Assembly: GCA_041671125.1 (NCBI GenBank)
Contig: JBAZCA010000003.1
Span: 689-64,688 of the forward strand
Origin: Patescibacteria group bacterium
GTDB lineage: Bacteria > Patescibacteriota > Patescibacteriia > Patescibacteriales > JBAZCA01
DNA length: 64,000 nt
Direction of reading: 5' to 3'
A program made the translations under genes and the position numbers. This document shows, in pieces, positions 4,491-64,000 of the stretch (the stretch's first letter is position 1; each line of letters begins with the position of its first letter). The notes beneath the pieces were generated by a model. It saw only the letters and a list, made by a program, of their open reading frames with translations, was not told the origin of the DNA and made no database searches.

Positions 4491-4533
4491 CAAATAACAG
4501 CCTGTGTTACGTGTTCCATGTTATGTGTTATGT
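4484..4533. repeat. inverted heptamer array (CATAACA-type units) between ruvC and the first pilin-fusion gene
   Basis: acacataacaaataaca / loop / tgtgttacgtgttccatgttatgtgttatgt. The two arms are reverse-complementary arrays with a 7-nt period. Confidence 0.7.
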
Positions 4534-4547
4534 TTAGATAAAACTCC

Positions 4548-5459
4548 ATGTCTAAAAAATCCGTAAAAATTCTTATCATCTCTAATTTGCTGTTTTTAGT
4601 TTTTTGTTTCACGCTTTTTCCCTCTTTGGCAAACGCCTGTAATTGCATGTGCTCTTTTAGCGGCGGCGCGGAACAATACGTCGGTACAGCTTCTGATAAT
4701 AATTGCAATTATTTTTGGTGCGATACTACCAAAGGCATGTCCGGCAGTCCGCATTGCGCTACTGACTCAACCCAGCAAACCGGCGCCGCCAATTTCACCC
4801 CCCAAATCGGCATTCCGGGTTCGGAGTTCCAGCAGGGCGCGTCCATCGCGGTTTCCAATAATACGGCCACTATCGCCAATTATGTCAAAGCCATTTACAA
4901 ATATTTAATCGGCATCGTCGGGATTACGGCGGCCATAATGCTTATGGTCGGCGGCGTAGTCTGGCTTACGGCCGGCGGCTCGCCGGAGCGAGTCAAACAG
5001 GCGCAGGATTATATCGTCGGCTCTCTAACCGGATTAGCCTTGGCTTTAGGATCTTTTTTAATTTTGGGCATGATAAATCCAGCCTTGGTGAATTTCAGGA
5101 TTTCGGGGATTGGAACGGTAAGTAGCCCTGCTCCATCCTCATCCACGACAGTGTCGGGCGTATCAACTACGGGATGTTGTAACGGCAGATATGGTTGCAT
5201 TGCTCCGTCAAAAGATGATTGCAATAATAATGGCGGAAACTGGCTTGACGCGACTAGCATAAATTACACGTGTGAAAACAACTATACTTGTACTGAAATA
5301 AAGAAAGAAGAGTTGGGGTGTTGTGAATTTTACGCGTTTATGAAGATTGGAAAAACCTGCCAGGGAAATCTTAATTATAGTGCCTGCATGAAGCTAGTAG
5401 ATAACCCCACCTTTAGTAAGGGTTACACGTGCGTTAGTCCTAATTGTGTTCCTCATTAA
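4548..5459 (+). CDS. secreted/membrane protein: VirB2/TrbC-like pilin core with Cys-rich N- and C-terminal regions (P1)
   Basis: Signal peptide MSKKSVKILIISNLLFLVFCFTLFPSLANA. Two-helix core IYKYLIGIVGITAAIMLMVGGVVWLTAGGSPERVKQAQDYIVGSLTGLALALGSFLIL, then a Ser/Thr linker and a C-terminal head with many Cys. Confidence 0.6.
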   Translation: MSKKSVKILIISNLLFLVFCFTLFPSLANACNCMCSFSGGAEQYVGTASDNNCNYFWCDTTKGMSGSPHCATDSTQQTGAANFTPQIGIPGSEFQQGASIAVSNNTATIANYVKAIYKYLIGIVGITAAIMLMVGGVVWLTAGGSPERVKQAQDYIVGSLTGLALALGSFLILGMINPALVNFRISGIGTVSSPAPSSSTTVSGVSTTGCCNGRYGCIAPSKDDCNNNGGNWLDATSINYTCENNYTCTEIKKEELGCCEFYAFMKIGKTCQGNLNYSACMKLVDNPTFSKGYTCVSPNCVPH

Positions 5460-5539
5460 AGCCATACTTTCTTCCCCGCGCCCGGCGGGAGTTTCCAGCA
5501 GGGACTCCCGCTCAAAGAAAAACAATTCTACAAATCCCC

Positions 5540-6724
5540 ATGCTAAAAAATTTCTTAAAACCGCTATTATTTTTCTGTTATCTGTTATCTGTTTTCTGTT
5601 TTCTGGCAATTCCCGCTCAGGCCATAAGTGATAGTTCTCCATACTGGGGCGATTTTGTCGCGCCACCCATACAAATCCCTATTCCGACCGTAAGTATAAC
5701 CAAAGATTCGGTTAAGTGCGAAGGCGACTACTGCGAAATCCCCTGGATCGGCCAATACGTCGCCGGCATCTATAAATACGCGATCGGCGTGGTCGGGATA
5801 ATCGCGGCCATCATGCTCATGGTCGGCGGAGTCAGATGGCTAACAGCCGGCGGCAACGCCTCAGCCGTGACAGACGCTCAAAGTTACATAACCGGCAGTC
5901 TCACCGGTCTGGTCTTAGCGCTTTTATCCTACACAATTCTTTATACCATCAACCCGGCGCTCGTATCATTTAAGCCGATCAGGGTAAAGATGGTGGAGAA
6001 GGTAGATATAATGAGCAATACCGGGGGATTAAGCTGCAGCGCTATAACCAATGAAAGCGAATGCAATGCGGATAAGCAACAATTAGGCTATGAATTTTAT
6101 AAAGGCGCGGAGTGTCCTGGCGCGGCTGATGCCTGCAAAAACAATCTCGAAGATTACAACGGTTGCATGAGCGGAAGAATGTGCTGTTGCACGAGAAGCG
6201 CGCAAGCTGGGTGTTCCTGGGCAACAGATCCAACGGATACCACCTGCGGAAATAACGCCCGGCAGGTTTCCGAGTACAGTAAATGCGGAACCAATACCGG
6301 AGGCATGTCCACTTGCTGTTGCAATTGGGCGAGCGAAGGGGGAGGGGACGCACAAAAATTATTAAACTGCATACAGGGCGCAACATCCGGTTTTGGAAGC
6401 GGTTCAATAAAAGGCTCAACTGAATCAAATAAACAGTGTTGCGAAAATTGGACTCCAAGTTGCGGACACTCCCAAACTAGATCAAATTCTTGCCACTTTG
6501 GATGCAAGAATGGATACCAGACCATGGCTATCGATTGGGGGTTGGGAGGTTCTAGAGATTGTAATAAAATTTGCGAAACAGCAAAAAATATTAGCTCGAA
6601 ATGTTCAGGTGACATCAAAGGTTCAATACTTGGACCTACTTTCTGTCCATCATGTAGCGGTTATAATCCATATCAAGATCATGACGATCATTTTCATATG
6701 AGTGTTAAGGGATGTATTCAATAA
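5540..6724 (+). CDS. secreted/membrane protein: pilin-like core fused to a Cys-rich head, possibly a LAS-type metallopeptidase (P2)
   Basis: Start moved to the ATG at 5540, giving signal peptide MLKNFLKPLLFFCYLLSVFCFLAIPAQA. Core IYKYAIGVVGIIAAIMLMVGGVRWLTAGGN and linker FKPIRVKMV. The head has CC/CCC runs and ends SCHFG..AIDWG..DHDDHFHMSV. Confidence 0.6.
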   Translation: MLKNFLKPLLFFCYLLSVFCFLAIPAQAISDSSPYWGDFVAPPIQIPIPTVSITKDSVKCEGDYCEIPWIGQYVAGIYKYAIGVVGIIAAIMLMVGGVRWLTAGGNASAVTDAQSYITGSLTGLVLALLSYTILYTINPALVSFKPIRVKMVEKVDIMSNTGGLSCSAITNESECNADKQQLGYEFYKGAECPGAADACKNNLEDYNGCMSGRMCCCTRSAQAGCSWATDPTDTTCGNNARQVSEYSKCGTNTGGMSTCCCNWASEGGGDAQKLLNCIQGATSGFGSGSIKGSTESNKQCCENWTPSCGHSQTRSNSCHFGCKNGYQTMAIDWGLGGSRDCNKICETAKNISSKCSGDIKGSILGPTFCPSCSGYNPYQDHDDHFHMSVKGCIQ

Positions 6725-6729
6725 ATACT

Positions 6730-7302
6730 ATGAGCAAAAAAAAATTGATAATTATTTTTTTGATAACAACAGTATTAACTATGGGAGGATTTTTTCTGTT
6801 CCGAAAAAAAATTTCAAAAAAATGTGTTAATTTAAAAGGAGACAACCAAGCCATTTGCATAAAGGAAGAAGCGGTTAATAGCGGCAATTTAAAAATGTGC
6901 GGACAAATTTTCAATAATAACTTGAAATACTGGTGTTATTATGAAATCGCCGATAAAAACAACGATCATAAAATATGCAAGAACCTAAGTGAATCCGACA
7001 ATTGTTACTTGAAAATCGCCATAAACTTAAAAGATGAAAAAATTTGCGAAAAAATTTTTCAAAAAGATATTAAGGCTTATTGCATAATCAACGCGGATCC
7101 CGAATGTCTTCCAAGTAAATTCTATACAATAGACAACGAAGGAAAATTCAATTGCGCTGACTCAAAAATCAAAAAAGAATGCGAGGTGAATGTAAACTGC
7201 CAGTGGAGTTATTATGAAAATAATACCGGCTCAAGCGACTGTACCTGCTGTCCCAAAGACCCGAATAAACAGCCTGACCGGTGCCTGGAAAAGGGGGAAT
7301 AA
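6730..7302 (+). CDS. membrane-anchored/secreted Cys-repeat protein (P3)
   Basis: ATG at 6730 lies 5 nt after the P2 stop. N-terminal hydrophobic helix, then about three 24-aa repeats of the form IC..I......C(Y)..IA... Confidence 0.5.
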   Translation: MSKKKLIIIFLITTVLTMGGFFLFRKKISKKCVNLKGDNQAICIKEEAVNSGNLKMCGQIFNNNLKYWCYYEIADKNNDHKICKNLSESDNCYLKIAINLKDEKICEKIFQKDIKAYCIINADPECLPSKFYTIDNEGKFNCADSKIKKECEVNVNCQWSYYENNTGSSDCTCCPKDPNKQPDRCLEKGE

Positions 7303-7337
7303 ATTTGTAATAGCTGATTACTAAATTAATTCGGAGC

Positions 7338-8528
7338 ATGAATAAAAAACTGAAAATATTTTTAACTTTTTTCCTTTTTGTCGCTTCTGTTTTTTTCTTC
7401 CCTTTTATTGCCCTGGCCGCCGACAAATGGATTCCGCCGACTTTGCAAATATCCATTCCGACCCTAACCGGATTCAGCGCGCCGGAGAAGTGCGATACGG
7501 CGCCGGACGGCCAGCCGATTTATTGCGTCGGTTGGATCGGCGAATATATCGGCGCGATCTATAAATACGCGATCGGCATTATCGGCATTGTCGCGGCTAT
7601 CGCCTTAATGATTGGCGGCGCTAGATGGCTTACGGCCGGCGGAAATCCTTCGGCCGTTAAAGACGCCCAAAGCTGGATTACCGGCGCGATTACCGGCCTC
7701 ATAATCGGCCTCGCTTCATACCTAATACTCTATCAAATCAATCCGAACCTGGTGATTTTTAAGCCGATCAGGGTAAAGATGGTAAAAGAAGTAGCAATCA
7801 GCTCGGTAAACGATCGTCTTATAAATTGCTCAATAAAATCGGCTTCGGAATGCGCCATCGGCTCTAACGGAATGAAAACTGACGATTCATGGAATAAATG
7901 CGCCAAACCAACTTGCGCCCCGGATGATATAGGCTGTCTGTCGCAAGTCTGCTGTTGTTTTGAAAGTCCCCTGCCTAACTGCCAATGGGAAACTGACTGC
8001 TCCGCTGGACGCGAACCGGCCGACGGCGCCGGTTGCGGAACTTTTTACGGCGGACTGGCTGAGAAATGCTGTTGTTCAAAGGCAACCGGAGGATGTAATC
8101 CGGCGGAAACAGGAGCTTGCTCGCCGAAACTTCTTCAGGCAAACGGCGGCAACTGTTTTGGAAGCAACATAAATGAAGCATCAGCAATATGCCAAAAAGA
8201 AAGTTCCGGAAACGAAACAAATACCAATCCTCAGGCAAAATGCAGTTATAATGGTAATAAATATCCTGTCGTAATCGGCTTATTTCAAATTAATATCAGC
8301 GCCAATATAGTAAGAGATTCGTCAGGTAACTCTTACAACTGCCGTTCCGCTTTTGACAAGCCATATTCTGATAAATCACCAAACTGCAACATAAATAATT
8401 GGGGTTTGTACGACCAATGCAAAAAACTTATGGAATCAGCCGCCAATAATATTGCGACTGCATGCAGTTTATCAAACAACGGAAGCAACTGGGGTAAATG
8501 GGTGGCCAACGATAATTGTAAATATTAG
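7338..8528 (+). CDS. secreted/membrane protein: pilin-like core fused to a Cys-rich linker and an SLT/lysozyme-like head (P4)
   Basis: Signal peptide. Core IYKYAIGIIGIVAAIALMIGGARWLTAGGN and linker FKPIRVKMV are shared with P2. The C-terminus carries ICQKESSGNE....VIGLFQIN, resembling the ES...GLMQ signature of lytic transglycosylases. Confidence 0.6.
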   Translation: MNKKLKIFLTFFLFVASVFFFPFIALAADKWIPPTLQISIPTLTGFSAPEKCDTAPDGQPIYCVGWIGEYIGAIYKYAIGIIGIVAAIALMIGGARWLTAGGNPSAVKDAQSWITGAITGLIIGLASYLILYQINPNLVIFKPIRVKMVKEVAISSVNDRLINCSIKSASECAIGSNGMKTDDSWNKCAKPTCAPDDIGCLSQVCCCFESPLPNCQWETDCSAGREPADGAGCGTFYGGLAEKCCCSKATGGCNPAETGACSPKLLQANGGNCFGSNINEASAICQKESSGNETNTNPQAKCSYNGNKYPVVIGLFQINISANIVRDSSGNSYNCRSAFDKPYSDKSPNCNINNWGLYDQCKKLMESAANNIATACSLSNNGSNWGKWVANDNCKY

Positions 8529-10529: not shown

Positions 10530-10555
10530 AATGCAAAATGACAAAATTATTTTAT

Positions 10556-10635
10556 CGTCATCCTGAGCGTAGCGAAGGATCCCGTGAACAGAGCTATTGC
10601 CACGAGATTCTTCGGCCTTCGGCCTCAGAATGACG
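10556..10635. repeat. GC-rich double-hairpin repeat (CGTCATCCTGAGC...CTCAGAATGACG family), copy 1
   Basis: Outer arms cgtcatcctgag / ctcagaatgacg and inner arms gaaggatcccgtg / cacgagattcttc. Flanked by inverted AAAATGN heptamers. A second copy lies at 37624-37726. Confidence 0.75.
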
Positions 10636-10661
10636 AATTCAATTTTTACATTTTACATTAT

Positions 10662-34496: not shown

Positions 34497-34913
34497 TTAC
34501 GGCGACCCGCCAGGTCCTCCCGTTCCTCCCCACGGTAAAACTGTGAAGACAAAATAGGTGATGGCATAGGCGGCGATTATTATAATAAGGCCGATGACAG
34601 CGTGGCGGATCTGATCCAGGGATTCTTTGGTTTTCTGCTCGTCGCCGCGGGCGTTCATATATTTCCAGCCGGCTAAAATTATGAGAATAATAAAAATGAT
34701 CCCCAATAGAGCCATGAAACCCATAATCACCGCCGTAATAATGGAACCAATGGAAACTGTATCGCCGAAACCGGCGCCTGTTTTTAGGGGGTCGGTTTGG
34801 GACGTAATCGCCGACTTACCCGTATCGCTTAAAAGTCCGGCTCGACAAAAAGACGGCGTTAAAATTAACACCGAAGCCGCCATATAAATAATCTTAAGCA
34901 AATTTTTCCGCAT
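34497..34913 (-). CDS. VirB2/TrbC-like (T4SS-pilin-like) small membrane protein, paralogue A
   Basis: Signal peptide plus two-helix core LLGIIFIILIILAGWKYMNARGDEQKTKESLDQIRHAVIGLIIIIAAYAITYF. Confidence 0.65.
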   Translation of the reverse strand: MRKNLLKIIYMAASVLILTPSFCRAGLLSDTGKSAITSQTDPLKTGAGFGDTVSIGSIITAVIMGFMALLGIIFIILIILAGWKYMNARGDEQKTKESLDQIRHAVIGLIIIIAAYAITYFVFTVLPWGGTGGPGGSP

Positions 34914-34942
34914 ATCACATTAAACCTAAGCGCTTAACAAAC

Positions 34943-35081
34943 CCTCACCCCCGGCCCCTCTCCCGCTCCTAATCGTCGCGGTAAAGGGGAGCTGAAATAA
35001 TAAGGGTATTTTTTATTAAATTCATTCCTCTGGCTCCCCTCTCTATTAACATCAGTTAATGGAGAGGGGTTGGGGGTGAGG
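34943..35081. repeat. about 140-nt GC-armed structured element between pilin paralogues A and B
   Basis: Outer arms cctcacccccggcccctctcc / ggagaggggttgggggtgagg differ only by G.T-type mismatches. An inner 15-bp hairpin, cccctctctattaac/gttaatggagagggg, competes for the same right arm. Confidence 0.6.
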
Positions 35082-35092
35082 CAAACCCCATT

Positions 35093-35482
35093 TTAAGCCC
35101 CAACAAAATATTTAAACACAAAGCCCCAAATCGCATAGGCGCTAATGGTAATAATCAGCCCGACAATCGCCTGCCGGATGGTCGCGAGTGATTTTTTTAC
35201 TTTTTCTTCCTCGCCCCGAGCCATCATATATTCATAGCCGGCAAATACTATTAAAACAATAAAGATTACTCCGAGGACTGAAATAAAAACCCCAATCACC
35301 TGTCCGGCGATCGCGCCGATTGAAAGACCACCCGAATCGCTTTGCGACTGGTATCCGGCCGGTTCGGCGACTTTTTTTAGCTTATCCAACGGCCCATCGC
35401 CCTCGGCAAAAACGAAAGCGGGTAGTAAAAGAAATAAAAACAGAAAGCCGCTGATCGCTAATTTTTTAAAAAAAATAATCAT
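35093..35482 (-). CDS. VirB2/TrbC-like small membrane protein, paralogue B
   Basis: Core VLGVIFIVLIVFAGYEYMMARGEEEKVKKSLATIRQAIVGLIITISAYAIWGF. ATG at 35482 preferred over the TTG at 35500. Confidence 0.65.
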   Translation of the reverse strand: MIIFFKKLAISGFLFLFLLLPAFVFAEGDGPLDKLKKVAEPAGYQSQSDSGGLSIGAIAGQVIGVFISVLGVIFIVLIVFAGYEYMMARGEEEKVKKSLATIRQAIVGLIITISAYAIWGFVFKYFVGA

Positions 35483-35510
35483 AATAATGGCTTTAAGCAA
35501 TAATCTAAAA

Positions 35511-35942
35511 CTACTGCGGAGTTGAAGATGACTTTATCAGCCCGCTTCCGAGCTGATAAATCACAAAATAACTTATAACATAAGCGGCAAGGACAATAAC
35601 TAAACCGATTACCGCGTTTTTCATTATGTCTTTGGCTTTGGTAACTTTGGCTTCGTCGCCGCGAGCTGTCATCCATTCAAACCCGGCGTAAATCAAAAGG
35701 GCTAAAAAAATCACCCCTAAGAGCGAAAGGGCAATATTAATAATCATTCCGATAGTAGTATAAACAGTTTCTTCGCCGCTGCCCGTAACCGGCTTATAGC
35801 CGGCTTTACCGGCAAATTTGCCTAAAGTGCCTTCGCCGAAAGCGTCGCTAATTCCGACGGCCTGAATAACCGGGACTACGGAAGAAAAAATCAACGCTCC
35901 GAAAAAAATAATGGTAAAAACCGTAACTAGTTTTTTTCGCAT
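35511..35942 (-). CDS. VirB2/TrbC-like small membrane protein, paralogue C
   Basis: Core LLGVIFLALLIYAGFEWMTARGDEAKVTKAKDIMKNAVIGLVIVLAAYVISYF. Its stop (35511) lies about 28 nt upstream of paralogue B's preferred ATG (35482). Confidence 0.65.
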   Translation of the reverse strand: MRKKLVTVFTIIFFGALIFSSVVPVIQAVGISDAFGEGTLGKFAGKAGYKPVTGSGEETVYTTIGMIINIALSLLGVIFLALLIYAGFEWMTARGDEAKVTKAKDIMKNAVIGLVIVLAAYVISYFVIYQLGSGLIKSSSTPQ

Positions 35943-35948
35943 AAAAGA

Positions 35949-36374
35949 TTAAGTGCCGGTTGTCGGTTTCGTTAAAATTTCCCCGGCAAACTTCGTAATA
36001 ACGTAAGCCGAAAGGACAATAACGAGGCCGATTACCGCCTGCTGAATAAGTTCCTTGGCCTTGTCGGCTTCCTGCTGGTTACCGCGGGCGAGCATCCACG
36101 TAAATCCGGCATAAATCATGATCCCTAAAAAAATTATTCCGATAAATGAAAGAGCTATTCCTAAAATTGACCCGGCCCGGTCGTAAAAATCAATGGCTTG
36201 AGGTTCAGTTCCATAACCCGCTTTAAAAGTTTCCAGCAGTCCGGCCGTGGTTTTGCCGGTAAGGCCGGTGGGCGCGGGAGTTTGAGCCAAAACCGCCGAG
36301 ATGCTAAAAAAAATAAAAAATAAAAACAGACTGGACAGAATAAAAGCTTTAAATATTTTTGAAGCATTTGACAT
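35949..36374 (-). CDS. VirB2/TrbC-like small membrane protein, paralogue D
   Basis: Core FIGIIFLGIMIYAGFTWMLARGNQQEADKAKELIQQAVIGLVIVLSAYVITKF. ATG at 36374 preferred. 6 nt from paralogue C. Confidence 0.65.
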   Translation of the reverse strand: MSNASKIFKAFILSSLFLFFIFFSISAVLAQTPAPTGLTGKTTAGLLETFKAGYGTEPQAIDFYDRAGSILGIALSFIGIIFLGIMIYAGFTWMLARGNQQEADKAKELIQQAVIGLVIVLSAYVITKFAGEILTKPTTGT

Positions 36375-36554
36375 AATTTTCACAAAGAGAAACAAAAAAA
36401 AGGAATTGTCTGAACTTATTTTCGTTACGCGTTACACTATTTTTCAGTATAATTGCCTTAAACATGAATTTTTCGCGTCCTGTCCAAAGCAATGGGCCCG
36501 TCCGCTGTCTTCTCGTATTTGAGTCTCTGAAGACAGGCCCGAAGAATTTCCATA

Positions 36555-36950
36555 TTATACTGCCGGGGTTCCGCCGGTGGCCTCAAAAATCGTATTAATA
36601 AGAAATTGGGTGATTCCAAAGGCGGCGAGTACTATAACCAAACCGATAGCGCCGGCTTGGATCAATTTTCTCGCTTCCGTGATTTTGTCGTCGTTTCCCT
36701 GCGCGGTCATCCATTTAAAACCGCCAATCAGGATGATGATAACGGCTATCAGGCCGAGAAAGCCTAAAATAACCCTGATAACGTTTACGATAATGCTTTT
36801 TGGATCTTCATTTCCTAATCCGATATCGTTGGCGTCGTTAAGTCCGAGATCGTTGGTTGTCAGCGCCTGGGCGTTAACCGTTACGGCGACGGACAAAAGC
36901 GGGATGATAACCATCATCGCCATCATCAGCTGAATAAGTTTTTTCTTCAT
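36555..36950 (-). CDS. VirB2/TrbC-like small membrane protein, paralogue E
   Basis: Core FLGLIAVIIILIGGFKWMTAQGNDDKITEARKLIQAGAIGLVIVLAAFGITQF. Confidence 0.65.
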   Translation of the reverse strand: MKKKLIQLMMAMMVIIPLLSVAVTVNAQALTTNDLGLNDANDIGLGNEDPKSIIVNVIRVILGFLGLIAVIIILIGGFKWMTAQGNDDKITEARKLIQAGAIGLVIVLAAFGITQFLINTIFEATGGTPAV

Positions 36951-37016
36951 AATTCACCCCCTTTCCTTTCCAAAGAGAAAAATTTATATTCTCTTTATGT
37001 TAAAAGTAAAAACAAA

Positions 37017-37406
37017 TTAATCGTTGACAACATTATTCTGGATAGTGGTAATGAGAAAATTAGCAATAGCAAAAGCGGCCAGAACAATTAATAGCCCGAT
37101 GGCGCCGTTAACTATATACTTCCTGCCCTGGGTTACCTTGTCGTCGTTGCCTCCGGCAGTCATCCAGAGGAATCCGCCGATTAGGATAACAACAACGGCG
37201 ATAATGCCTAGAAAGCTTAAAGCCACCTGGATAATGTTAACAATAACATTCTTCGGGTTGGCATTTTGAAGCCCGATGTTGTTGGCAAAATTGAGGCCAA
37301 AATTACCGAGATTATCTTGTGCTAAAACTGCCGTTGATGGCAGAAGGACAGCCGCTAAAAGAAACGCCGCCGCCGCTAACTTAATCTTCTTTGTCCATTT
37401 ACACAT
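37017..37406 (-). CDS. VirB2/TrbC-like small membrane protein, paralogue F
   Basis: Core FLGIIAVVVILIGGFLWMTAGGNDDKVTQGRKYIVNGAIGLLIVLAAFAIANF. Closest to E and to the cores of P1/P2/P4. Confidence 0.65.
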   Translation of the reverse strand: MCKWTKKIKLAAAAFLLAAVLLPSTAVLAQDNLGNFGLNFANNIGLQNANPKNVIVNIIQVALSFLGIIAVVVILIGGFLWMTAGGNDDKVTQGRKYIVNGAIGLLIVLAAFAIANFLITTIQNNVVND

Positions 37407-47908: not shown

Positions 47909-47933
47909 AATTTTCAACTCTAACTAAAAGATC

Positions 47934-52891: not shown

Positions 52892-54133
52892 ATGAAACAA
52901 TCGCAACTTTTTACCAAAACCTTAAAACAGACTCCCTCCGACGAACAAAGCTATAACGCCCGGGCGCTTATCCAGGGAGGATTTATTAATAAAGAAATGG
53001 CCGGGGTTTATGATTTTCTGCCGCTTGGGCTTCGGGTACTGAATAAAATCATCGCCATTATAAGAGAAGAGATTAATGCCGTCGGCGGGCAGGAAACCTT
53101 TTTAGCGTCGCTCCAAAATCCGGAACTTTGGAAAAAAACCAACCGCTGGGACGACGCGATTTATGATGTCTGGTTTAAGACCAAACTGAAAAACGATACC
53201 GAACTCGGCCTCGCGACGACGCACGAAGAACCGCTGACCAACCTCTTAAGAAAACATATTTCCTCTTACAAAGACCTGCCGAAAAGCATTTATCATTTCC
53301 AGACTAAATTCCGGAACGAAACCCGGGCAAAGTCTGGCCTGATGCGGCTTCGGGAGTTTATCATGAAAGACGCTTATTCTTTCCACGCGAGCGAAGAAGA
53401 CCTTGACGCCTATTACGAAAAAATGAAAGCGGCCTATACGAATATTTTTAAGCGGGCGGGCTTGGGCGATCTGACTTACCTCACTTTCGCTTCGGGCGGA
53501 ACCTTTTCAAAATATTCCCATGAATTTCAAACCTTAACTTCGGCCGGCGAAGATATTATTTACATCTGCGAAAAATGCCGCGTTGCCCTAAACCGGGAGA
53601 TTATTGAAGACGTGAACCATAAATGCACGGAATGCGGCAACGACAAGCTGAGAGAAGAAAAGGCGGTTGAAGTCGGGAATATTTTTAAGCTAAAAACAAA
53701 ATACTCCAGTCCCTTAGGCCTTGCGTTCATGGATGAAGAAGGCGTTTCAAAAGACGTGGTTATGGGCTGTTACGGCATTGGGCCGCAAAGGCTCATGGGA
53801 ACGGTGGTTGAAACCTTGCATGACGAAAAAGGGATAATCTGGCCGGAAGCCATCGCCCCTTTTAAGGTGCATATCCTGAGCTTAAACAAAGGAACCGAAG
53901 CGGAAAAAATCTACGCTGATTTAAGCTCAGCCGGTATTGAAGTTCTCTTTGACGACCGGGAATTAACCGCCGGAGAAAAATTCGCCGACGCGGATCTAAT
54001 CGGCATCCCTTACCGCGTCGTCGTCAGCGAAAAGTCGCTCGCGGCCGGCGGGGTGGAAGTGAAAAAAAGAAGTGAGAAGGAAGGGGATATTGAAAAAGTT
54101 GAAAACTTGTTGAAGCTGTTTTTAAAAAATTAA
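52892..54133 (+). CDS. proS: proline--tRNA ligase, minimal bacterial-type form lacking the INS editing domain
   Basis: MKQSQLFTKTLKQTPSDEQSYNARALIQGGFI start, motif 2 FRNETRAKSGLMRLREFIMKDAYSF, and a C-terminal anticodon-binding domain. Only 413 aa, with CEKC...CTEC between motifs 2 and 3. Confidence 0.9.
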   Translation: MKQSQLFTKTLKQTPSDEQSYNARALIQGGFINKEMAGVYDFLPLGLRVLNKIIAIIREEINAVGGQETFLASLQNPELWKKTNRWDDAIYDVWFKTKLKNDTELGLATTHEEPLTNLLRKHISSYKDLPKSIYHFQTKFRNETRAKSGLMRLREFIMKDAYSFHASEEDLDAYYEKMKAAYTNIFKRAGLGDLTYLTFASGGTFSKYSHEFQTLTSAGEDIIYICEKCRVALNREIIEDVNHKCTECGNDKLREEKAVEVGNIFKLKTKYSSPLGLAFMDEEGVSKDVVMGCYGIGPQRLMGTVVETLHDEKGIIWPEAIAPFKVHILSLNKGTEAEKIYADLSSAGIEVLFDDRELTAGEKFADADLIGIPYRVVVSEKSLAAGGVEVKKRSEKEGDIEKVENLLKLFLKN

Positions 54134-54323
54134 GAGATGCGAGCATTGAAAAATTTCGGCGATAATCGCGAGCGTAGAAAGTGTGCAAAATTCCACTGCT
54201 TGAGGAGTCCCGCCATCAGGCGGGGCGACGAGTTTGGAATTTTGCTAGCTTTCCTAGCGAGTGATCCGAAATTTTTCCTGCTCGCGATTTTTGCGCCACT
54301 TTTTCTAAAAAAGTGGCAAAAAG
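54133..54323 (+). ncRNA. about 190-nt highly structured repeat element (unclassified), copy 1, filling the proS-proC spacer
   Basis: Nested long-range helices (gcgagcattgaaaaatttcgg/ccgaaatttttcctgctcgc; gcaaaattcca/tggaattttgc; cccgcc/ggcggg) plus a 3' hairpin gccactttttctaaaaaagtggc. The second copy at 61544-61730 shows compensatory changes. The strand and RNA nature are inferred. Confidence 0.5.
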
Positions 54324-54324
54324 A

Positions 54325-55119
54325 ATGGGCACAAAATTGAAACAATCAATCGGAATTTTCGGCTTTGGCCACATGGGTCAGGCTATTTTTAAATTACTAA
54401 AAACCAATAAAAAATTCAGTAACTGCCGGTTTTTTGTCTGCTCGCTCGGGCTGGATAAGGTTAAAGGCGCCGAACGTACTGACAACTTAAAAGCGCTCGC
54501 TGAAAAGTCCGATATTATTTTTCTTTGCGTCAAACCGCAGGAATTTAAAAAAATAGCGCCGGAGAAAATCGGCTCTTTAAAGACCATCATTATTTCCATC
54601 ATGGCTGGCGTAAAAATAGACGCTATCAGGAAGACTATCGGCGCGAAAAGAATAATTCGCGCCATGCCTAACCTCGCTCTGGCGGCCGGAAAAAGCATGA
54701 CCGGCTGGTATGCCGATAAAGAGCGGCTCACGCGATCCGAATTGCGGACAGCAAAAATAATTTTTGACGCGTTCGGCAAACAAATTTTTCTAAAAAACGA
54801 AAAACAGCTTAACGCCGTAACCGCTGTTTCCGGTTCGGGTCCGGCTTATGTTTTTCTTTTTATGGACGCCCTGGTAAATGCGGCAATGAAACTCGGTTTT
54901 CAGAGAAGCGACGCCTTAACGCTGGTAAAAGAGACGATTGCCGGATCGCTTAAGTATTCCGAAAACGAGAATGATCTGGCCGAGCTGGTTAAAAAAGTAA
55001 CCTCAAAAAAAGGCACGACTGAAGCGGCCTTAAAAAGCCTGGATGTTGTTCGGTTTTATAAACAATGGGAAAGGGCCGTAAAAAAAGCCTATGAAAGAGC
55101 TGAGGAACTATCAAGCTAG
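54325..55119 (+). CDS. proC: pyrroline-5-carboxylate reductase
   Basis: IGIFGFGHMGQAI Rossmann motif, MPNLALAAG, and C-terminal SKKGTTEAAL. ATG at 54325 preferred over the GTG at 54313, which lies inside the repeat. Confidence 0.85.
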   Translation: MGTKLKQSIGIFGFGHMGQAIFKLLKTNKKFSNCRFFVCSLGLDKVKGAERTDNLKALAEKSDIIFLCVKPQEFKKIAPEKIGSLKTIIISIMAGVKIDAIRKTIGAKRIIRAMPNLALAAGKSMTGWYADKERLTRSELRTAKIIFDAFGKQIFLKNEKQLNAVTAVSGSGPAYVFLFMDALVNAAMKLGFQRSDALTLVKETIAGSLKYSENENDLAELVKKVTSKKGTTEAALKSLDVVRFYKQWERAVKKAYERAEELSS

Positions 55120-61374: not shown

Positions 61375-61448
61375 GGACAATTAGCTCAGTTGGTTAGAGC
61401 GCACGCTTCACACGCGTGAGGTCGGAGGTTCGAGCCCTCCATTGTCCA
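61375..61448 (+). tRNA. tRNA-Val (anticodon CAC)
   Basis: 74-nt cloverleaf: GGACAAT/ATTGTCC acceptor, CACGC-TTCACAC-GCGTG anticodon arm, GGAGG-TTCGAGC-CCTCC T arm. Confidence 0.9.
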
Positions 61449-61452
61449 CGAA

Positions 61453-61540
61453 TAAGGTTCGTCCAGCATTCGCTCCCCGCCCGGCGGACTTGTCTGGCGT
61501 ATGCTGGATGCCGGGCGAGTCCACTAGTGACCACAAAAAA
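61453..61540 (+). repeat. conserved tRNA-Val trailer, copy B
   Basis: Differs from copy A only at GGAC->CCCC and CGT->TGA. Inverted relative to copy A. Confidence 0.8.
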
Positions 61541-61543
61541 ACC

Positions 61544-61730
61544 AGAGATGCGAGCATTGAAAAATTTCGGAAAAATCATGAGCGTGGAAGCCGTGTAAAA
61601 TTCCACTGTCTGAGGACCCGCCGAATCGGCGGGGACGAGTTTGGAATTTTACTAGGCTTCACAGCGAATGATCCAAAATTTTTCCTGCTCGCAATTTTTG
61701 CGCAACTTTTTCTAAAAAAGTTGCAAAAAT
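61544..61730 (+). ncRNA. about 190-nt highly structured repeat element, copy 2
   Basis: Collinear with 54133-54323. Helix changes are compensatory (gtaaaattcca/tggaattttac, gcaac/gttgc, gaagcc/ggcttc). Followed by a terminator. Confidence 0.5.
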
Positions 61731-61752: not shown

Positions 61753-61786
61753 AAAAAAACGCTTTAAACAAAAAGCGTTTTTTTTA
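61753..61786. terminator. bidirectional intrinsic terminator (end of the tRNA-Val/trailer/element unit and of clpP)
   Basis: aaaaaaacgcttt aaacaa aaagcgtttttttt; the stem is flanked by an A-run and a T-run. Confidence 0.65.
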
Positions 61787-63818: not shown

Positions 63819-64000
63819 ATGAACGCCAACAGAGAGCAAATTCAAATCCGGATTGATTCAAAAACTAAGTCCGAGGCGAAAAAGATCCTGGATGAATTAG
63901 GCCTGGATATGAGTTCGGCAATAAAGCTTTTTTTTCGCCAGCTTATAATCGCGAGAAATTTTCCCTGCGAATTAAAGGATGCCAACGGCTTTACCCTGCG
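63819..64000 (+). CDS. RelB/DinJ-family antitoxin (partial, runs off the window)
   Basis: MNANREQIQIRIDSKTKSEAKKILDELGLDMSSAIKLFFRQLIIARNFPCEL matches the ribbon-helix-helix DinJ pattern. Not in the ORF track because there is no stop within the window. Confidence 0.7.
   Translation, partial: MNANREQIQIRIDSKTKSEAKKILDELGLDMSSAIKLFFRQLIIARNFPCELKDANGFTL

Follow-up and report, generated by a model that had tools for sequence, protein, structure and literature searches.

A family of small palindromic intergenic repeats with a conserved rod-like fold in Patescibacteria

The spacer between proS and proC in a 64,000-nt stretch of contig JBAZCA010000003.1 from a Patescibacteria group bacterium (the window, by which the whole of that stretch is meant) is filled by a rod-forming element that recurs behind a tRNA gene in the same window, and the question raised by this locus is whether such an element is an RNA gene tied to its place by function or a repeat that moves from place to place. 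The element is one of a family, not described before, of small palindromic repeats that are non-coding and lie in short Patescibacteria intergenic spacers. It is probably a non-autonomous, structure-constrained intergenic repeat of the MITE (miniature inverted-repeat transposable element)/ERIC/REPIN kind, dispersed in Patescibacteria (Candidate Phyla Radiation, CPR), and not a single-locus RNA gene. As in a MITE, the unit is small and non-coding, has terminal inverted repeats, and occurs in dispersed copies with presence/absence polymorphism (three orthologous sites differ). Coordinates are given in window numbering unless a locus is named, the two window copies are written copy 1 (w1) and copy 2 (w2), and L-numbers denote loci of relatives.

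The copies and the build of the unit

Two copies of one sequence were located on the + strand of the window, copy 1 at 54139–54323 and copy 2 at 61550–61730, where an earlier note on this DNA had placed two rod-like elements, and were aligned by BLAST with 85% identity over ~190 nt (E 2.5e-54). An identical AGAGAT hexamer precedes both (54133–54138 and 61544–61549). The nested rod and separate 3′ hairpin described in that note were recovered by computed folding, which gave each copy a long rod (~72 bp) and a 3′ hairpin at -96.1 kcal/mol (z = -10.3) for copy 1 and -84.6 kcal/mol (z = -10.0) for copy 2, with 0 of 200 dinucleotide shuffles folding as stably as either. Also present in the copy alignment were all three of the compensatory helix differences that it had listed, which are, for copy 1 and copy 2 respectively, GCAAAAT/ATTTTGC and GTAAAAT/ATTTTAC, GCCAC/GTGGC and GCAAC/GTTGC, and GAAAG/CTTTC and GAAGCC/GGCTTC. 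Indels between the copies disrupt any shared reading frame, so that the open reading frames (ORFs) drawn through the element are, as had been claimed, not conserved in frame. The settings agreed as well: copy 1 fills the proS-proC spacer, and copy 2 comes after tRNA-Val-CAC and its 94-nt trailer and before a terminator-like hairpin. No third copy was found in the 64-kb window by BLAST, nhmmer or covariance model, the last of which scored copy 2 at 202.5 bits.

Relatives were sought with an exact 21-mer in species-representative genomes and with an arm-pair pattern in JGI metagenomes. The 21-mer scan returned a Candidatus Falkowbacteria metagenome-assembled genome (MAG), L002, which carries two copies, and a second Patescibacteria MAG, L003, in which the copy is truncated after ~38 nt. 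At 6936–7475 of L002, 1.4 kb from one of its copies, there is an ORF with the LAGLIDADG-type motif GFTDGEGSF, which may encode the homing endonuclease of an intron. The arm-pair scan returned 22 metagenome loci, 10 with true relatives (L007 holds two copies); the other 12 were unrelated palindromes and were set aside. Further members were a degenerate copy in L031 and the contig L026, which begins inside a copy. With the two window copies the family comes to 15 full copies, 13 of them outside the window, which scored 129–202 bits with a covariance model (R1) of the kind that the earlier note had proposed. Viral, phage and plasmid collections held no relatives, and a lone 18-mer match in a viral contig (L036) was discarded as chance.

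The copies, set in very short gaps among housekeeping genes, occupy at least 10 unrelated contexts, among them proS/proC, tRNA-Val/clpP, folD/recQ, purN/purD, atpD/atpC, cysS/dus, glmM and secreted-protein genes, and many lie within 5–20 nt of the adjacent stop and start codons. Their orientation relative to flanking genes is mixed (~5–6 sense, ~7–8 antisense). The earlier note had proposed to test whether copies always stand between a stop codon or tRNA and the next start codon; taken as a rule that they stand there in the sense direction, this failed, antisense copies outnumbering sense ones. Between co-directional genes no orientation bias can be claimed (8 antisense, 4 sense), and sorting by operon context was not significant.

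The unit is 145–205 nt long and non-coding, indels among copies breaking any reading frame. From 5′ to 3′ it has an imperfect-palindrome rod of ~72 bp, then a T-run and a small hairpin with an A/T core, and usually an A-rich tail at the end. The base of the rod is formed by helix GCGAGCA/TGCTCGC, then by helix GAAAAATTTYGG/CCRAAATTTTTC and a ~5-nt A-rich bulge, the middle by short helices split by the small internal loops 5′-GA/5′-GA, GUA/MUA and GU/UA, and the upper part by helix GYAAAATTCCA/TGGAATTTTRC, the conserved loop CUGUYUGA...GAGUU and an apical hairpin free in length and sequence. In the terminal inverted repeats GCGAGCATTGAAAAATTTYGG pairs with CCRAAATTTTTC..GCTCGC; the inverted symmetry spans the whole rod, not the termini alone, and the 3′ hairpin lies outside it. 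The terminal sequence of the repeat, as would bound a related insertion sequence (IS), is GCGAGCATTGAAAAATTT... The 3′ hairpin has a nearly invariant TTTTTCTAAAAAA core within a variable G/C outer stem (GCCAC, GCAAC, GCGAC, GTAC, CTTC, GTTC or TCCA, each with its own complement). Reverse strands of the 15 copies scored only 32–55 bits with model R1, compared with 129–202 bits for the sense strands, and the unit therefore has a defined polarity, which is set by the 3′ hairpin.

Twelve of the 15 copies have, on the sense strand only, a run of T5–7 that begins within 1–2 nt of the basal helix GCGAGC/GCTCGC; the exceptions are L010 and L013, in which it is split by a GC palindrome, and L002a, which has ATCATTT. 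The inserted palindrome, CCTGCCTGCCGGCAGGCAGG, is 20 nt long and perfect, lies at ~4915–4934 of L010 and ~5235–5254 of L013, in copies of different subfamilies, and is either a second mini-repeat or evidence of exchange between copies. The A-rich tail is likewise present in 12 of 15 copies. In the three tail-less ones (L011, L007) the G+C-rich 3′ flanks CCCCGCGCAGCGG, CCGCCCAGCGCG and CCCCCGCCCGGGCAGGGCCC directly adjoin the unit and may be another small repeat.

Variants are combined in mosaic fashion across loci and genomes. In apical and helix type w1 agrees with L010 and w2 with L013, L010 and L013 share the GC insertion despite differing apical and helix types, and the 3′ hairpin of L026 is that of L013. 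Because of this mosaic, the differences between copies suggest subfamilies and exchange between copies, not compensatory evolution in situ at each locus.

Gain and loss at orthologous sites

Four orthologous sites were compared between genomes ~85% identical in nucleotide sequence. The folD-recQ spacer contains a 195-nt copy in L013 and only AAAAGAT in the window (47926–47932), with flanks 85–88% identical; the BLAST breakpoints are L013 5204 = window 47926 and L013 5400 = window 47932, and 6–7 nt align on both sides. At tRNA-Val/clpP, the L033 spacer (ClpP 98% identical in amino acids, 85.6% in nucleotides) is 59 nt long and has a simple terminator, with neither element nor trailer. The purN-purD spacer holds a copy in the same orientation in L006 and L031. 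The L031 copy has lost its 3′ hairpin, and in its mid-rod ~16 nt of each arm have given way to unrelated A/T-rich stretches that are complementary to each other, but the copy continues to fold as a rod (z = -7.1).

At proS-proC the element is in place in L026 (ProC 72% identical), where the contig starts inside it. This contig is the NCBI MAG contig CAYPBE010000006.1, and the position of its first nucleotide within the element is consistent with an assembly break at the repeat. In L027, L028 and L029 (ProC 74%) only AGAGATGCGAGCATTGAAAAA is left, as a 21-nt scar fused in frame to proC, and the proC start in these loci is therefore the ATG in the 5′ end of the element: the annotated start is an ATG within the 5′ remnant (AGAG-ATG-CGAGCATTGAAAAA; 4998–5020 of L027, ~1002–1024 of L028, and likewise in L029). 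Here proS and proC are 3 nt apart, and the first proC codons are supplied by the scar of the repeat. The junction is a deletion scar between GAAAAA repeats and not a virgin site.

The spacer between porB and rpoC contains the truncated copy (~38 nt) in L003 and a different palindrome in the window. The latter, CGTCATCCTGAGCGTAGCGAAGGATC...CCTCAGAATGACG (~10545–10660, z = -4.7), is flanked by the porB stop and by a terminator that L003 also has, and hairpins seem to insert preferentially at this point. The 94-nt trailer between tRNA-Val-CAC and copy 2 (61450–61543) is itself G+C-rich and forms a hairpin of -33.9 kcal/mol (z = -2.4). The orthologous L033 spacer lacks it, and at the L033 locus and in L034 another G+C-rich hairpin stands instead, upstream of the tRNA.

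Taken across these loci, the alignments show that copies appear and disappear at the pace at which species diverge, which would make the repeat a mobile or once-mobile, non-autonomous element.

Constraint on the fold and its explanations

In the 15-copy alignment, standard pairs were formed in 94.6% of cells, compared with 35–57% when partners were slid by 1–3 columns, both-sided changes were found in 27 of 53 pairs, compared with 8–10 in the slid controls, and 0 of 500 shuffles reached any of the pairing measures. Mean identity was 0.81 in internal-loop columns and 0.84 in paired columns, with many loop positions invariant; the conserved internal loops are the three of the middle rod, in which GA/GA is a tandem G.A, and CUGUYUGA...GAGUU. 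Covarying stems together with invariant loops show that the hairpin and its specific internal loops have been kept by selection. Simple decay is unlikely because loop columns are as conserved as stems, and a purely mechanical perfecting of the palindrome is unlikely because such a process would erase mismatches. The earlier note had read the pattern as structure under selection and not as a decaying MITE, and had named a lack of covariation in a larger alignment, together with the lack of a stable transcript, among the outcomes that would refute it. Covariation among the 15 copies was strong, and the part of the claim that concerns structure stood; the contrast with a MITE did not, since the element behaves as a dispersed, polymorphic repeat, some copies of which are truncated, scarred or rearranged.

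The same constraint could belong to a functional structured non-coding RNA family (trans-acting, protein-binding or acting in cis within mRNA) that was spread by duplication, with mobility secondary. This explanation is unlikely as a full account, and it and a mobile repeat are not mutually exclusive. Strong covariation and invariant loops, the tandem G.A included, would be expected of it, as would the sense-strand U-run after the rod and the orthologous persistence of copies at proS-proC (window, L026) and purN-purD (L006, L031). Sense-strand RNA was also more stable than antisense in 14 of 15 copies; the gap came mostly from common purine-rich loops, and the asymmetry, inherited from a common ancestor, therefore counts as roughly one observation. 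What speaks against it is that conservation starts abruptly at GCGAGCA with no conserved promoter ahead of the element (a consensus promoter scan was empty both at copy 1 and within copy 2), that G.U was found in 19 cells and A.C in 11 (p = 0.2), without a significant wobble excess and with G.U making up 2.4% of paired cells, that several copies lie antisense inside operons (for example atpD-atpC and purN-purD) and are dispensable between sister species, and that the L031 copy keeps a perfect duplex without the conserved loops and 3′ hairpin. In agreement with the earlier note, which had matched the element to no RNA family, Rfam 15, whose families include 6S, T-box, riboswitches, tmRNA, SRP and RNase P, gave no match to it at gathering thresholds or E <= 10; the best score on the element, for an unrelated family, was 18.7 bits (E = 0.18) where the gathering score is 91, and at gathering thresholds the window yielded three tRNAs only. 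A 6S-like RNA (RF00013, ~185 nt) is similar in length and rod shape but was rejected, because the element has no Rfam match and no large central bubble and is multi-copy, dispersed and dispensable between sister species.

In quasi-palindromes, template switching during replication carries an alteration of one arm over to its partner (Ripley-type quasipalindrome mutagenesis), and the compensatory pattern might be a by-product of such intra-strand switching in a neutral palindromic repeat without function. Although nearly all changes replace one Watson-Crick pair by a different one and G.U intermediates are few (85 double-changed cells compared with 19 G.U), and the ~16 nt in L031 were replaced jointly on both arms by perfectly complementary A/T-rich sequence, this origin is very unlikely: mismatches should vanish under it, yet nearly every copy, from whichever genome, has the same asymmetric internal loops and the 5-nt A-rich bulge, and the asymmetric 3′ hairpin module is retained. 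A terminator or attenuator cassette of the neighbouring genes, for example a proC regulatory leader duplicated once in the source genome, is hardly credible. The G+C-rich basal helix followed by T5–7 on the sense strand has the form of an intrinsic terminator, a G+C-rich stem with an immediate U-run, so that sense-oriented copies may terminate transcription in the Rho-independent manner, and copy 1 directly precedes proC and proA, which are genes of proline biosynthesis. However, the element is found beside unrelated genes and oftener antisense than sense, without the significant sorting by operon context that was looked for above, a separate canonical terminator follows copy 2, and relatives fuse proS and proC (3-nt spacer) without the element. 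A proC-specific leader was rejected because the element adjoins unrelated genes and is absent from the proS-proC junctions of relatives.

For the mobile intergenic repeat that we prefer, the form that matters would be one strand folded on itself. Most likely, a hairpin of single-stranded DNA (ssDNA) or RNA would be recognised by a trans-acting factor and required for propagation or persistence, with the constraint acting on ssDNA during mobilisation or on RNA within read-through transcripts. As a side effect, a copy transcribed inside neighbouring mRNAs would form a strong stem-loop, and possibly a terminator on the sense strand only.

Several findings weigh against this preference. A functional RNA would account just as well for the conserved internal loops and for the greater stability of the sense strand, and the persistence of some copies at orthologous sites despite ~72% amino acid divergence of the neighbouring gene is what a functional conserved element would also show. 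The density of copies is low (2 in 64 kb, 1 in 20 kb). No transposase or autonomous partner is in the gene lists of the 64-kb window, RAYT and Y1 transposases being absent from the genes called across it, and exact-pattern scans of the genome and metagenome collections found no cognate IS with the same termini. Direct end repeats of 6–7 nt were seen in L013 (AAAAGA(T), checked against the empty site), L020 (TATTATT) and L019 (AAAATAT), and are suggestive only of target-site duplication: over all 15 copies, matched flanks were no better than mismatched flanks (permutation p = 0.17), and the AAAAGA repeat of L013 could equally be the A-rich tail of the element meeting a similar target.

A bolder proposal, possible but doubtful, is that of a strand-specific mobile unit working as a single-stranded fold, either a REPIN-like ssDNA hairpin with a putative Patescibacteria transposase or a mobile structured RNA whose conserved tandem G.A and other internal loops would bind a host protein. 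Either, if true, would be without a described precedent in this phylum of reduced genomes, and the RNA version would be a portable module for CPR genomes, serving as terminator, stabiliser or processing site.

Comparison with known repeats and features of the window

ERIC, Correia, RUP, SPRITE, bcr1 and REP/REPIN are small intergenic stem-loop repeats that are co-transcribed and affect mRNA stability or termination; location differences between close relatives are seen in such repeats and taken as evidence of mobility, and ERIC/IRU and YPAL of Enterobacteriaceae are listed as MITEs (PMC3184786). The Patescibacteria repeat resembles ERIC/IRU and YPAL in being a whole-unit imperfect palindrome that folds as a rod, non-coding and without a known transposase, and in lying in short transcribed intergenic regions in both orientations, at low to moderate copy number and with presence varying among related species. 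It differs in phylum, has no sequence relationship to them, is 145–205 nt and not ~127 nt long, has the extra asymmetric 3′ hairpin module and T-run, and shows no TA flanks. With REPIN/REP (RAYT, IS200/IS605-like Y1) it shares a long hairpin with conserved mismatches, a feature recognised in single-stranded form in the REPIN system, long persistence at orthologous sites, lack of a clear target-site duplication and a non-autonomous nature. In contrast to REPIN/REP, there is no RAYT/Y1 gene in the 64-kb window and no conserved 5′ tetranucleotide of the GTAG type, GCGAGCA being preceded by no more than a weak A-A-T preference, and the build is one continuous ~72-bp imperfect palindrome in place of two short inverted REPs. 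Correia (CREE), RUP, SPRITE and bcr1 are likewise small intergenic repeats with predicted stable stem-loops in transcripts, and SPRITE resembles a Rho-independent terminator, as do the rod and T-run here; those families have defined terminal inverted repeats and target-site duplications (TA in Correia, TTTAT in bcr1) or known IS relatives, whereas here target-site duplication is at most suggested and no IS relative is known.

In the literature on MITEs and structured RNAs in Patescibacteria/CPR, no description of such repeats was found. The kind is well known; new are the family in Patescibacteria, which has no sequence relationship to the known ones, and its unusual asymmetric build of rod, T-run and small hairpin.

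Table 1. Coordinates of the repeat copies, their parts and the adjoining features in the window
Feature	Coordinates	Strand	Remark or basis
5′ flank AGAGAT	54133–54138	+	first A also closes the proS stop codon; similar in L013 (AAAGAT); kept in the L027/L028/L029 scar
Copy 1 rod, GCGAGCA...TGCTCGC	54139–54285	+	~72 bp in nested helices, conserved internal loops, apical CCCGCC/GGCGGG hairpin; from fold, consensus structure and covariation
T5 run	54288–54292	+	directly 3′ of the G+C-rich basal helix of the copy 1 rod; intrinsic-terminator-like, sense strand only
Copy 1 3′ hairpin, GCCACTTTTT-CTA-AAAAAGTGGC	54295–54317	+	outer stem covaries among copies; TTTTTCTAAAAAA nearly invariant
A-rich tail AAAAAG of copy 1	54318–54323	+	proC ATG next, at 54325
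Copy 2, AGAGAT and rod	61544–61692	+	rod at 61550–61692; from fold and covariance model score
T5 run after copy 2 rod	61695–61699	+	from sequence
Copy 2 3′ hairpin and A-rich tail	61702–61730	+	hairpin at 61702–61724, GCAAC/GTTGC; from sequence and fold
proS (context)	52892–54133	+	Pfam tRNA-synt_2b, HGTP_anticodon; stop codon 54131–54133 adjoins copy 1
proC (context)	54325–55119	+	start 1 nt past the end of copy 1 (54323)
tRNA-Val-CAC (context)	61375–61449	+	upstream of copy 2
Terminator-like hairpin and T-run (context, outside the repeat)	61753–61786	+	read from sequence; not conserved beside other copies
Empty target site AAAAGAT, folD-recQ spacer	47926–47932	+	orthologous spacer of L013 holds a 195-nt copy at exactly this point; from alignment and BLAST breakpoints

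Patescibacteria have small, tightly packed genomes that are usually thought poor in repetitive or mobile DNA. They can nevertheless harbour an intergenic repeat under structural constraint, which fits into spacers only a few nucleotides long and turns over between sister species. The repeat breaks assemblies, as in the contig that begins inside a copy, and reshapes gene starts, as with the proC start codon of one lineage. In annotation, spurious ORFs through the element should be ignored, and in RNA discovery, strong covariation by itself cannot tell whether a sequence is an RNA gene or a mobile repeat that forms a hairpin.

The window lies within a 174-kb contig of ENA assembly ERZ27249449, and its proteins are assigned by NCBI to a Patescibacteria group MAG. 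Its gene content is otherwise housekeeping in character, with rpoBC, aminoacyl-tRNA synthetases, uvrBC and a T4SS-pilin-like gene array. In this array, six tandem small genes (128–143 amino acids) at ~34500–37400 match PF18895 (T4SS_pilin), and further pilin-like genes lie at ~4500–8500. A RelB/YafQ-ParE toxin-antitoxin pair was found at the window end (~63819–64000) and beyond (L001 20928–21242). The window ProRS is short (413 amino acids) and without the tRNA_edit domain, and in a more distant relative (L030 7077–8753) the ProRS has 558 amino acids and an editing domain and the pro gene cluster is rearranged.

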